Assembly: GCA_951406725.2 (NCBI GenBank)
Contig: OX597821.1
Span: 83,700,001 to 83,764,000, forward strand
DNA length: 64,000 nucleotides
Source of the DNA: Octopus vulgaris
Lineage: Eukaryota
Direction: 5' to 3'
The translations under genes were made by a program, and so were the position numbers. Within the stretch, counting starts at the first letter, position 1. Every line of letters begins with the position of its first letter. Under the pieces are notes generated by a model, which saw only the letters and a program-made list of their open reading frames with translations, searched no databases and was not told the DNA's origin. This document shows, one piece after another, positions 51,435-63,745 of the stretch.

Positions 51435-51632
51435 TATATATTTCGGATAATGTAGCCATTCTATTGACAGATATACAAGTGCATCTTTTCACTGATTTAT
51501 GGTCTCTTAGATGACTCACCCACGTATATATATATATATATATATATATATATATATATATATATATATATATATATATGACCGCTAAATCCACAAGTTT
51601 TCTTTTCATTCTTTGTTTATTTTCTCTTATTC

Positions 51633-51668
51633 CTTTCTGTTGAAGAACGTAGGCTCGAAACGTAAAAG
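51633..51668 (+). ncRNA. H1 hammerhead motif with U6 core (element 51580-51760)
   Basis: CTTT-CTGTTGA-A-GAAC gtag GCTC-GAA-ACGT-A-AAAG. Confidence 0.65.
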
Positions 51669-51998
51669 ACTTTCTCATTTTCCCGAGCGTGAAACAAATA
51701 CACCTATTTGTTGTTTATACAGCTGTCTTCGTCTTTTGTTTTTCTGTAAATTTCAGCAATATATGTATACACGTATATATATTTATATATAATCAATGGG
51801 GCATGGTGATTATTGTCACAAAATGTATTAGCGTGCAAAACCTACAACTCTTGCAATAGATACACCTAAAACGAAAACGGTATGTATTTCACAATGGTTT
51901 CTGATCAGGATACTCATATATTAATTTTTACGTGTTTATTTTCAAAAACATGTCAACGAAAGCAGTTAGAGTCAATGAAGTTTCAAAGCATTTAAATA

Positions 51999-52564
51999 TT
52001 GGTTTGTACGGAAAGTTCGTGCCGATTTATAGTAGCTTACCTTTCGACTTATTTTAGAACATGGTTGAGTTCATGAAATAGGATTTGACTACACCCCCAT
52101 TTAGAGCGCAGTTTAAGCTATCTTTTCGTGGAAGAAGGTTTATGTTCCTATAACCTGTGTTAATTCTGTAACACTTTAAAATGGAAGATAAGAAAGTTCA
52201 TTTTCGGCACTTGATGCTTTGGGAACCAGACAAAAATTGCTGCAGCTCGGCTGGGATGTGTTACTCCACCTTCCATATTCACCAGATATTGCTCCCTCGG
52301 ATTTCCACTTATTCGGGTCTCTGCAGAATAGTGTTAATGGTAAAAATTTCAATTCCTTGGATGACGTAAAAAGATAGCTTGAAGAATTCTTTGCCATGAA
52401 ACCACCTCAATTCTGGGAGGAGAGTATTTTCAAGTTAAAGGAAAGATGGAGACGCATTGTGCAACAAAATGGTTCATATTTGGTTGATTAAAAATGTAAT
52501 GGCAAGTATTTATTGACCTTTTTCTTTCCTTTAAAAATCGGCACGAACTTTCCGGACAACCCAA
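51999..52564 (+). mobile_element. Internally deleted mariner (mellifera-like), 566 bp
   Basis: TIR TTGGKTTGTMCGGAAAGTTCGTGCCGATTT at both ends, TA TSD; MEDKKVHFRHLMLW joined to the LGWDVLLHLPYSPDIAPSDFHLF segment. Confidence 0.9.
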
Positions 52565-55500
52565 TATATATGTACGAGAGTGAGATATTGCTCAACCTTC
52601 AATTCTTATGTGTGTGTGTGTGTGTGTGTGTGTAATGGATTGGATTTGAATGATAATTATCTGTTCGTTCTTAATACATTTTAGCATCTTTCATTTATGT
52701 ATGTCAACGAAGTGCATAAACATCGGCAAGCAAGATCAAACACCTGTATGCTCTGTACGGTGAAGTCCTCTACGATATTTGTTCTGTACCGAGTTACATA
52801 AAACTTCGTCGTCCTTCTCGTCGCCTGAAGTACAATGAACCATTTACCGGCCGGTTATAAGTTTGCACCCGACGTTATATGTCAAAGATCATTAATTGCG
52901 ATAGAAAATAAGTGAACATATTACAACGAAACCATAAAAAAAGCATGAATGATATTATATTTATACAAAAGATGGTAAATACGCGAATTTGCAAAATTGT
53001 ATATTTGCATTTGCACACATATGCATACAGACACGCAGTCTCATTTACATGCATATACATACACACACACAACACACACTCTCTCTCGCCCTCTCTCTCT
53101 CTCTCTCCCTCTGTTTCCCCCTCTCGCTCTCACAAAAATATTCATTATGATTATTCTATATATTCACATAAAATATAATGTCCCAAAGGCATTGCTTTGC
53201 TTGTTTACCCTAAAGGGCAGGTTCCCGACATACATACGTACACACATACATACACAAGCATGTATACTTATTTACAGCTATATGTGTGTGTGTGCATGTG
53301 CGTGCGTGTGTGTATGTATGTGCGTATGTGTACAAACATATATTACAAAGAAATTAATGTTTGACTGTTTATATATATAAATAAATAAATATAAATACAT
53401 ATATATGACTAACAATAAAGAATAATAGAATATATATATATATATATATATATATATATATATATGTATATATATATGTATATATATATGTATATATATG
53501 TATATATATGTATATATATATACACATATGTATATATATATATATGTATATATATATGTATGTATATATATGTATATATATGTATATATATATACACATA
53601 TGTATATATATATATTTATATATATATGTATGTATATATGTATATATATATGTATATATATATATGTATATATACATATATATATATATGTATATATATA
53701 TATATACACATATATATACACGCATATACATGCTGTTGCATAATGTCTTTAAATGTTGTGCACTTTGTCCTTTGCAATACATATTGATATTCGCATCGAG
53801 ATAACTTTGAGTTGTCTTGAAAAGTATTCCATATAACACATGCAAACATGCACACACACACATACACAAACGCTCACACACATACACACACGCCCACACA
53901 TGCTCATGCACATACATGCGCACACATTCATGCATACATATATATGAACACATCCAAATGTTTCATATATATATATATATGCATACATATACTATATTCA
54001 CTGATGTAAGTACTATAAATGTATCTGCGTGCGCGCGTGTGTGTGTGTGTGTGTGTGTGTGCATGTGTGTGTGGGTGGGTGTGAGTGCGCGCGCGCACAA
54101 AGGTACTTAGGGAAGCGTAACACTTGCTTTTTATACACTTCTGTTCATTCATGTCTACACATATATGTAGAAAAATATATATACACACGCACACATATGT
54201 CAATGCATATTTACATGGATATACGCCTCTGCGCTACAAAATTACATAGGGAAATATGCATATATATATATATATATATATACGAACGTATGAACATGAA
54301 CATATACATACATATATACATACGTACGTATATATATATGTGTATATATATATATATATGTACATAGTAGCTACATTAGTTTTCCTTCATCCATTCATTC
54401 TTTTTATCTTTCTTTCTTTATCTATCTATCTATCTATCTATCTATCTATCTATCTATCTATCTATCTATCTATCTATCTATCTATCTATCTATCTATCTA
54501 TCTATCTATCTATCTATCTATCTATCTATCTATCTATCTATCTATCTCTCTCTCTCTCTCTCTCTCTCTATATATATATATATATATATATATATATATA
54601 TATATATATATACATACACACACACACACATATATATATATATATATACATACAAACATACATACATACATACAAACATATATATATATATACGCAGACA
54701 CACGCACTCACAATACACGTACAATCACAAACTAACGCATACATATCTGCACGCTTGCACTTGTATACAAACACTCCCAAACACTCATACATACGCATTA
54801 ACAAGCATGATTGTACACACACACACACGCACACACACACATCACATCACATCAAATCACATCACATCACATCACATCACATCACATCACATTACATATA
54901 CACGCACATTCATAAATCCACACAAACTTGCATTCATACGCTTATATTTACCTCACGCATATTTACATAGGTGAACACACTAATAAAACGTGTTATATAT
55001 AGACTCACGTAAACAAAAAGATAAAAAACGGAATGGAAATACAAACATTCGAATGCACATGTTCGTAAATACGCATATTCTTTTATTCTTTGTTCGTTTA
55101 TTCTCTTTAAGGTTTCAGTCATTGGACTGTGGCCATGCTGGTGCACCGCCTTCAAGGGTTTTAAGCCTATTACATCAACCCTGATAATTATTTTATCGAC
55201 CCCAAAAGGATGAAAGGCAAAGGGGATCTGCACACATACACATATATACTGTGTGTGTGTGTGTGTGTGTGGGGGTTATGTGTGTGTATATGCGTGCTCA
55301 TGTGTTTATCATCGTTTGTGTGTGTGTGTGTGTGTGTGTGTGTGTGTGTGTGTGTGTGCGCGTTTGTATTCGTATTTTTTTTCATATTTTTGTGTTTATG
55401 TCTATGGATGTGAATGCACACATACACACAAACACACGCGCATACGTGTACACGCTCTCTCTCACACACACACACACACACACAAACACACACCACACAT

Positions 55501-61329: not shown

Positions 61330-61811
61330 GCAGCACAAAGAAATCCATGTTTATTGATCATCATCTATTAATTAAATAAAGTGATTAAAGAGAGCCATCT
61401 GGCAGGCTGGTAGGAACGTTAGCACGCCGGTCGAAATGCTTAGCGGTATTTCGTCTGCCGCTACGTTCTGAGTTCAAATTTCACCGAGGTCGACTTTACC
61501 TTTCATCCTTTCGTGGTCGATTAAATAAGTACATACTATATATATATATATATATATATATATATATATATGCTCGGGAAAATGAAAAAAAGTATTTTAC
61601 ATTTTAAACCTACGCTCTTCAACAGAAAGGAATAAGAGAAAATAAACAGAGAGAATGAAAAAAAAAAGACTTGTGGATTTCAGCGGTCCAGCATATATAT
61701 ATATATATATATATATATATATATATATATATATATATATATATATATATATATATATATATATATATATATATACATACACACAAATATATACACACAC
61801 ACACACACATA

Positions 61812-62105
61812 AAGGCACATGGCTCAGTAGTTAGAGCGTCGGACTCAATCCTGATGTAGTGAGTTCGATTCCCACCCGGGGTATGTGTATGTGTTTTTGA
61901 GCAAGACACTTTATTTCACGTTCGTCCAGCTGCAGAAATGAGTTGCGACGCTGTATCGGCCCCTTTGCCTTTCCCTTGGATAACACTGGTGGCGTGGGAA
62001 GCCGGTATGCATGGGCGACTGCTGGTCTTCCACAAACAACCTTGCCCGGACTTGTGCCTCGGAGGGAAACTTTTTAGATGCAATCCCATAATCATTCATG
62101 ACTGT
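61812..62105 (+). mobile_element. SINE family C
   Basis: tRNA-like A box TGGCTCAGTAG and B box GAGTTCGATTCC. Confidence 0.85.
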
Positions 62106-63342
62106 CTCTCTCTATATATATATATATATATATATATATATATATGGTAATCTTTCAGTTTAGGGTGTTTAAAAGAAAAAATAAAAATGAAGTCTAAATG
62201 ACGGCATCTACACTCACCAAGTGATTGTGCACCAAACTATATATATATATATATATATATATATATATATATATATATATATATAGTTATGTGTGTCTTG
62301 ACAACTGGTGTTGGTGTGTTTACGTCACCGTAACTTAGCGGTTCGGCGAAAGAGCCCGATAGAATAAGTACTAGGCTTAACAAGAATGTCCTGGAGTCGA
62401 TTTGTTCGATTAAACCCATCTAAGGCAGTGCCCCAGCATGACCGCAGTCAAATGACTGAAGTGAAAAGTGAAAAGAAAAAGGAAAGAAGATGTTACTACA
62501 GTAGTGATGATGATGATGATGAAGATGGTGGTGATGGTGCTGTTGGTGGTGGAGGCGGTGATGGTGGTCGTAGCAGTAGTCATGGTGGTTGTGGATACAG
62601 AGGGAGTAGTTGTGAGATCGTGGTCGTAAGATCGTACTGTTGTGATGTCTATAATTGTGTGACGAGCAGAGACATACAAAGACGGTGGAGTTAACTTCAA
62701 CTCCGCACAAGATGCTGAAAAAATGGAATGTCGGTTGTACTTTGACATTGAAATCTTCTTCCATCAAATTCACTGATCGACTGACTAACTGTAATAGCTA
62801 TCGTTTCTCTAGGGTGTCTTGGCTCAATCCCAACTCTATCTTCAGCGATAGATAGACTATTCTGATCAATATACTTTAAGAACATAGCTTCTTTTAAGGC
62901 ATAAAGTGAAGTATACGATTGATAGTGCGTCTATAGTTCTTTTACTCCTTTACTTATTTCAATCATTGGAATATAGCCAAACTGGGCTACCGCTTTGAAG
63001 GGTTTAACGAAACGAATTGACATCACTACGTCTTCTTTTTTTAAAGTCTGACACTTCTTCAATCGTTTTCTTTTGTTGAACTGCTAAGTTAAGGGAACAT
63101 AAACGAACCAAAACTGACCTTCAAGTGGTGGTTTAGAAACCAAACACACATATCTATCTATCTATCTATCTATCTATCTATCTATCTATCTATCTATCTA
63201 TCTATCTATCTATCTATCTATCTATCTATATGTATATATATATATATATATATATATATATATAGATCGCCATGTTGATTCGCTAGCCTCTGCACGCTTT
63301 TTTTTTCTCTCCTTCTTTCTCTCCTTGTTTCCTTTCTGTGTA

Positions 63343-63380
63343 TCTTTCTGTCGAAGAGCGTAGGCTCGAAACGTAAAAGA
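63343..63380 (+). ncRNA. H1 hammerhead motif with U6 core, all stems intact (element 63266-63478)
   Basis: TCTTT-CTGTCGA-A-GAGC gtag GCTC-GAA-ACGT-A-AAAGA. Confidence 0.7.
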
Positions 63381-63745
63381 CTTGTTTTATTTCTATTCCT
63401 GAGCGCCATACTAATACAATTGTTTGTTTGTACTCCACCTGCCTTCGTCTTTTGTTTATTTTCATAAAGCTTTCCGTTATATATATATATATATGTTGTT
63501 CTTTTATTCTTTTACTTGTTTCAGTCATTTTGATTGTGGCCATGCTGGAGCATTGCATTTTTGTCGAAGAAATCGACCTCTGGACTAATCTTTTGTAAAC
63601 CTGGTACTTATTTTATCGGTCCCTTTTGACGAACCGGTGCATTACGGGAACGTAAACACACCAACATCGGATGTGAAGCGATGGTGGAGGAACAAACACA
63701 GATACAAATACACGAATATATATATATATGGAAAAAAAGTCAAGA

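Follow-up and report, generated by a model that had tools for sequence, protein, structure and literature searches.

The 64,000-nt stretch of the Octopus vulgaris genome analysed here (GCA_951406725.2, contig OX597821.1, positions 83,700,001 to 83,764,000; hereafter the window) carries several copies of a dispersed repeat of about 200 nt containing a hammerhead-like RNA motif, in which core position 6, an adenosine in the hammerhead consensus, is a uridine. U6 is the consensus letter of this repeat family in contigs from public sequencing runs. Judged by its sequence anatomy, the motif is classified as a predicted minimal type I hammerhead of the kind found in the pseudo-long terminal repeats (pseudo-LTRs) of Penelope-like elements (PLEs), and the family is likely a variant of this known hammerhead class that standard searches would miss.

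The family motif consists, in order, of a stem I strand (CUUU), CUG followed by positions 6 and 7 and GA, an extra A, stem II (GAGC/GCUC) with a four-base loop, GAA, a palindromic ACGU or AUGU, A17, and the second stem I strand (AAAG). Apart from position 6, the hammerhead core (C3, U4, G5, N7, G8, A9, G12, A13, A14, A15.1-U16.1 and H17) is present in the copies at 63343, 51633 and 275 and forms the majority sequence in four public runs. The likeness to minimal PLE hammerheads (PMC4209133) extends to a U-rich pyrimidine-tract leader, a short stem I, one extra base past A9, G10.1-C11.1, a palindromic 15.1-16.1 segment (ACGU or AUGU) in place of stem III, dispersed single copies and a predicted dimer mode. 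The initial annotation had pointed to the extra A past A9, which is present in all six hammerhead motifs that it listed in the window; this base is ordinary, being part of the minimal-hammerhead consensus CUGANGAH (PMC4209133, Fig. S3 text), and was dropped as an unusual feature. The copy at 63343 retains a 5-bp stem I, a 4-bp stem II, ACGU and four CpGs, all intact as first described, and the other three U6 copies of the window carry further damage (Table 1).

Position 6 was read from contigs of four of 24 public runs, aligned at 80% likeness to the A6 copy of the window (184-380), a choice of reference that favours A6. The runs bear three organism labels, with 8295 contigs placed on the copy for X3 (organism A), 7106 for X6 (organism C), 6349 for X11 (organism E) and 1461 for X9 (organism A, possibly RNA); contig shares are depth-weighted and cover only copies at least 80% alike, and rare variants are lost in contigs. 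U at position 6 accounts for 94.7% (X3), 95.0% (X6), 94.7% (X11) and 96.9% (X9) of depth and all other letters together for at most 5.3%, so that the family lacks the A6 of the consensus core and is classed as a variant rather than a consensus member. Six other private changes of copy 275 show the alternative letter in 78-99.6% of depth, and because position 6 falls inside that range, the A6 of copy 275 looks like a private mutation that arose after insertion. A6 copies may still form a minor class of up to about 5%. With so few non-U6 letters, the division into A6 and U6 subfamilies first envisaged was rejected. The companion proposal, that the family was amplified with U6 and did not acquire it by random decay, was upheld: U6 makes up about 95% of depth under three organism labels despite an A6 reference, and the rarity of U6 that would have spoken against this proposal was looked for in the contigs of the four runs and not found.

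Position 7 provides a view of several expansions within the family. In X3 it is C in 34%, U in 26%, A in 25% and G in 15% of depth, the sole site of 197 with three alternative letters at 5% or more, and U6 is the majority letter within each position-7 class of at least 14% share (lower bounds 63-91%). The A7 class makes up 25% in organisms A and C versus 2% in organism E, a difference suggesting that amplification from U6 sources continued beyond the separation of those lineages.

The rest of the core appears constrained in a pattern resembling that of known hammerheads. In the contigs no alternative letter reaches 5% at C3, U4, G5, A9, the extra A, A13, A14, A15.1, U16.1, stem I or seven of the eight stem II positions, and changes located at CpGs stay at 3.0-5.6% (G8A), 6.9-8.9% (G12A), 3.4-5.8% (C11.1U) and 7.0-11.5% (G16.2A). 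Position 7 takes all four letters and the other core and stem positions show CpG-level decay only; within the C7-G8 CpG itself, C>U reaches 22-43% versus 3-6% for G>A. Larger variation is found at position 7, the first loop II base (G 25-36%), position 15.2 (C 61-73%) and position 17 (U 2-14%), sites that hammerheads leave free, and the change at position 17 is from A to U with G not listed, in line with the NUH rule. With 8 of the 36 positions free, all four variable sites would land on free ones by chance with a probability of 0.001; restricting the count to the two transversion sites raises this to 0.04. A comparison of the four complete window copies shows variation in 2 of 27 constrained and 74 of 138 flank columns (Fisher p=3.5e-6), and one that adds the decayed fifth copy in 6 of 27 and 40 of 69 (p=0.0015), figures in which core conservation is inflated, the copies having been found partly via the core, and in which the flank alignment is poorer. 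AUGU (27-39%) exceeds G16.2A (7-12%), as would suit a dimer palindrome, but the excess is inflated by a U in the reference and is not part of the main evidence.

Among the motifs compared here, U6 is rare outside this family. Metagenome contigs from one of the 64 parts of the collection, scanned with a pattern that leaves positions 6 and 7 unspecified, gave 125 matches at 122 loci. Of the 31 with H17 and at least 3 bp in each of stems I and II, 29 have A at position 6, one C, one G and none U; among those with H17 and a stem II of at least 4 bp, the letter is A in 45 of 46. Of 120 matches in a viral chance control, one passed the first filter and three the second, two of these three with U6. 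The exact U6-family pattern had no match in the metagenome contigs. Read by eye, all 56 published representatives of the minimal PLE hammerheads carry A6 (PMC4209133, Fig. S3), a set whose descriptor fixes the core, as does the 'cuganga' search string in PMC8557442; the only core covariation reported for them is U3-A8 (PMC4209133). Position 7 is equally free among the A6 hammerheads of the metagenome set. A second departure is A17, which dominates the U6 family and is found in 6 of the 56 published motifs (by eye; PMC4209133) and in none of the 31 metagenome motifs. A17 as compensation for the lost A6 is a lead only, given that the U17 class exceeds the non-U6 share in two runs. An A6 minimal hammerhead present in six metagenome contigs (L010, L027, L051, L078, L106 and L122) agrees in core, stem II and loop with the Acropora motif of PMC4209133 Fig. 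S3, apart from a single loop change in L078. In its stem II 3′ strand (GCUC) and its 4-nt loop it is similar to the U6 family and offers a natural A6 control.

The window is AT-rich and dense in microsatellites, and contains five copies of the repeat (275, 7793, 51633, 61594 and 63343) that are pairwise 74-87% alike by BLAST. A 28-nt family pattern with up to three mismatches matches the window exactly five times, versus no match in 100 shuffles. The six heptamers were confirmed at the places first given, the coordinates used there, and here as copy names, being the left edge of stem I on the positive strand. TA-type runs flank all five copies on both sides, the 3′ end lies 126-131 nt past C3 in four of the five, and none is arranged in tandem, all being solo. 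The family therefore shows the PLE-like insertion trait of an AT-rich or (TA)n target with variable 5′ and common 3′ ends, a trait not unique to PLEs.

Table 1. Hammerhead-bearing repeats and the Penelope-like reading frame in the window, with positions counted from its first nucleotide.
Feature	Positions	Strand	Heptamer	Details
U6-family copy (63343)	63265..63478	+	CTGTCGA	about 214 nt, between (TA)n runs; core least decayed
Predicted minimal type I hammerhead motif of the 63343 copy	63343..63380	+	CTGTCGA	stem I 5′ strand 63343-63347, C3 63348, U6 63351, C7, extra A, stem II GAGC/GCUC, GUAG loop, GAA, ACGU palindrome, A17 63375 (predicted cut 3′ of A17), stem I 3′ strand 63376-63380
U6-family copy (51633)	51580..51759	+	CTGTTGA	motif 51633-51668, C3 51637, U6 51640, U7; one stem II mismatch
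U6-family copy (61594), 3′-truncated	61572..61693	-	CTGTTGA	motif 61629-61594, C3 61625, U6 61622; decayed: G12A, broken stem II, stem I 3′ end
U6-family copy (7793)	7705..7905	-	CTGTCAA	motif 7828-7793, C3 7824, U6 7821; G8A at a CpG, AUGU palindrome variant
A6 copy of the same family (275)	185..380	-	CTGACGA	motif 310-275, C3 306, A6 at 303; 87% like the 7793 copy
Distantly related A6 element (35618)	35515..35720	-	CTGATGA	motif 35652-35618, C3 35648; different stem II, ACGU, U17; downstream CCYGAGCG block in common
5′-truncated Penelope-like reverse transcriptase and GIY-YIG-type open reading frame	44164..45588	+		one in-frame stop; RVT_1 E=1.6e-8; relatives with GIY-YIG

All six motifs had been taken as members of one family, which stands for the five copies above. 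The sole BLAST link of the 35618 element to them is 71% over 63 nt (E=0.006) and its stem II differs; by sequence it would represent a separate A6 family, a distant relative at best. A CCYGAGCG block is conserved about 15-25 nt 3′ of the predicted cut in all six motifs, 35618 included (e.g. 63396-63406 and 51680-51690). It is able to pair with the stem II 3′ strand (GCUCG) or with an upstream CGCU, and may be a switch or a distal stem.

The interpretation favoured here, with a probability of roughly one half, is that the repeat is a dispersed non-autonomous Penelope-derived element of about 200 nt with an attenuated U6 ribozyme assisted by dimerization or by protein. The repeat would likely be a non-autonomous piece of a Penelope-like pseudo-LTR whose source copies are selected to keep the core and whose inserted copies decay neutrally (CpG loss of 3-12% per site). 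Two motifs would pair through the ACGU/AUGU palindrome, within a tandem transcript or between transcripts, and the paired dimer would cut after GUA. U6 would lower the cleavage rate, as A6C does, to a level sufficient for the element, because fast cutting is not needed and uncut RNA can serve as the insertion template, and a Penelope-like reverse transcriptase-endonuclease would copy the RNA into (TA)n sites, with the Penelope protein possibly aiding cleavage. A working but attenuated ribozyme is preferred because the tolerance pattern is the catalytic one and because weak, assisted cleavage is normal for the class. Natural A6C hammerheads keep low activity, with kobs <0.1/min for that of phage Bcep176 (PMC3088659, section 8) and rates of 0.004-0.05/min in 1-3 mM Mg and about 0.3/min in Mn (PMC7151607). 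The PLE hammerhead of Anolis cleaves only with its protein (PMC11167929).

Several results weigh against this interpretation. Rfam gave no hammerhead match at E<=10 in 63266-63478, and none among the matches listed for the window (150 of 283). Predicted folding of the U6-family cores is no more stable than that of shuffled sequences (z +1.2 to -1.3); a stem I of 4-5 bp and a stem II of 4 bp are possible and conserved but not favoured in whole-element folds, with a stem II probability of 0.00-0.02 in four natural copies, and no compensatory pair change was found within the family. For the 63343 copy the double hammerhead, at -15.9 kcal/mol, is not the predicted lowest-energy fold, the minimum free energy structure lying at -23.6 kcal/mol. 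Taken by themselves, the contigs give 0 of 24 variable constrained positions versus 11 of 95 in the flanks, a borderline difference (p=0.07). A6C cost a type II ribozyme about 10^5-fold in 0.3 mM Mg (PMC7151607), and no published activity value for A6U was found in the literature search. No open reading frame adjoins any of the five copies, the Penelope-like element at 44164-45588 has no DNA match to them, and the window and contigs gave no parent element with a reverse transcriptase.

Second in likelihood is a catalytically dead core whose fold or sequence is kept for binding of the Penelope protein or a host factor in packaging or reverse transcription, U6 being tolerated or favoured as it stops cutting of the template. 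This is possible, if somewhat on the unlikely side. Insertion of the Anolis element PAc in vitro is undiminished by hammerhead catalytic mutants, uncut RNA is its main template, and no RNA-seq reads ended at the PAc site (PMC11167929). Naiads reach very high copy number without canonical hammerheads (PMC8557442), and changes to the CUGA turn are crippling in pairwise mutagenesis, where all mutants had low activity except a C3-G8 swap (PMC9901934). A6, a single substitution away, has not taken over. U6 also permits a helix (U4G5U6:A15.1C15.2G16.2) that closes the monomer, with P=0.42-0.52 in two ACGU cores and 0.00 with A6; however, this helix is weak in AUGU cores (P=0.05) and absent from whole-element folds. 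Against a dead core, the protein-binding region of PAc was mapped to the first 172 nt of its open reading frame and not to the core (PMC11167929), and the tolerance pattern, with N7 free, H17 as A or U but not G, and G8 and G12 kept, is that of a catalytic motif.

A neutral founder effect, in which one source lost A6 and was amplified and the core seems conserved through shared ancestry and core-based recognition, is improbable. It could draw on hammerhead cleavage being perhaps dispensable (PMC11167929, PMC8557442), on the borderline contig-level test, and on three of the four variable free positions being CpG-related, with a p of about 0.04 when the two transversion sites alone are counted. 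Against it, window copies of different subfamilies diverge in 27-39% of flank columns, whereas the four complete ones differ in 0-2 of 27 core columns; U6 accompanied the expansion of each of four position-7 classes, and the uneven A7 share points to U6 sources amplifying past the lineage split.

The suggestion in the initial annotation that U6 RNAs are substrates cut in trans by A6 partners, through an ACGU-mediated heterodimer, fared poorly and is now quite improbable. It is geometrically possible: in a double hammerhead the CUGANGA/GAAA half of one molecule cuts the UH site of the other, stem I between the A6 copy 275 and the site of a U6 copy reaches four pairs for three of the four U6 copies, and ACGU occurs in the 35618 family as well. 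However, A6 partners are scarce in a family with so few non-U6 letters, stem I with the 35618 family is 3 bp instead of 4-5 (only stem I pair counts were used, heterodimer energies with 35618 being confounded by the broken stem II of that copy), and a pure substrate would need none of C3-A9, stem II and G12-A14, the enzyme half that U6 copies nonetheless conserve. That the letters are held by an overlapping signal of a parent element (a reading frame, a splice acceptor past the pyrimidine tract or a promoter) and not by RNA catalysis or fold is highly improbable: PLE hammerheads can overlap an open reading frame start (PMC11167929) or an intron end (PMC4209133), and G5-U6-N7 would be a fourfold-degenerate valine codon in a frame reaching UAA at 16.1-17-1.1, but position 7 is just as free in A6 hammerheads, variants in loop II, 15.2 and 17 would be non-synonymous or abolish the stop, and the upstream pyrimidine tract differs in length between copies.

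The Penelope-like open reading frame of the window (Table 1) has mostly bivalve proteins as named relatives and a CxxxxCxxC linker preceding its GIY-YIG-like part. Its presence shows that the genome contains the likely helper class, with no partnership with the U6 family implied. Upstream of it, on the opposite strand, lie two tandem copies of about 225 nt (43744-44189, negative strand; 96% alike), each with a decayed CUGAAGA hammerhead-like motif, an orientation that fits the inverted 5′ pseudo-LTR arrangement described for PLEs. An inverted pair of a 225-nt repeat (59288-59512, negative strand, and 59677-59902, positive strand; 74% alike), each with an A6 hammerhead-like CUGAAGA motif (C3 at 59449 and 59739), has the appearance of inverted pseudo-LTR fragments from a different family. 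The stretch 36331-38340, GC-richer and decayed coding-like with an RT-like (reverse transcriptase-like) motif of L1/Tx1 type by eye on the positive strand, was considered as a decayed PLE parent of the 35618 motif and dropped: tblastn with the Penelope-like element of the window did no better than with shuffled sequence (best E=0.30), and Pfam gave no credible match there in any of the six frames. Tc1/mariner transposase remnants lie at 42625-43236 and 50284-51359 (Transposase_1 E=1e-24; HTH_48 E=5e-22).

With regard to the U6 family itself, one X6 contig runs from place 376 back to 207 across 32 intervening letters, the junction expected of a head-to-tail tandem, and X9 contigs run upstream of the usual 5′ end, past 378-379, into common GC-richer sequence (14 and 2 records). 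These contigs are leads to a longer parent or a tandem source; short motifs from the upstream contig ends had no convincing place within the window. The U6-family motifs are absent from the Naiad/Chlamys/Hydra supplement, which gave unrelated matches only.

The literature search turned up no description of a natural hammerhead family with U6, nor of hammerheads in octopus. Two 2017 papers, a survey of small hammerhead variants at Penelope-like elements and the description of Terminons, bear directly on the question and may list such variants. The main text of a 2026 octopus repeat annotation does not contain the word 'ribozyme' (PMC13282606), and the repeat may already be in repeat libraries with its motif unremarked.

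The closest counterpart in the core is the A6C hammerhead of phage Bcep176 (PMC3088659, PMC7151607), likewise a natural position-6 change in an otherwise intact core; however, it is a single phage example of a full ribozyme with low, Mn-favoured measured activity, whereas the U6 family is a minimal dimer-type motif in several subfamilies and species, recognised here from sequence alone. Non-LTR retrozymes (PMC7229834; bioRxiv 10.64898/2026.07.22.740005) are also short non-coding units with a type I hammerhead, dispersed monomers and proposed mobilisation by PLE proteins, but have tandem arrays with complete motifs, together with circular RNAs, as their defining features, in contrast to the solo copies of the window and the one tandem-like contig. 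PAc (Poseidon of Anolis; PMC11167929) shares a PLE hammerhead and AT-rich insertion sites with the U6 element, but is autonomous, with a hammerhead that overlaps its open reading frame start and no U6 mentioned in the accessible text, whereas the U6 element has no open reading frame.

These observations bear on the role of hammerheads in Penelope-like elements, where conservation of the motif coexists with weak activity in vitro and, in one reconstituted system, dispensability. The family amounts to a natural experiment, in which a mutation expected to be crippling is fixed in several subfamilies and species and the other core positions are kept. If U6 dimers do not cut, the family would clearly illustrate how a ribozyme fold can be retained for a non-catalytic role in retrotransposition. 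If they cut, the core rules would gain a new exception, and searches with CUGANGA-fixed descriptors would undercount. A stronger and unlikely version is that, in its native setting, the CUGU core works efficiently as a natural ribozyme, the loss of A6 being compensated, for example, by the co-fixed A17 or by the protein of the element; if true, the CUGA turn would not be obligatory, and whole genomic families of hammerheads would be invisible to CUGANGA-based censuses.

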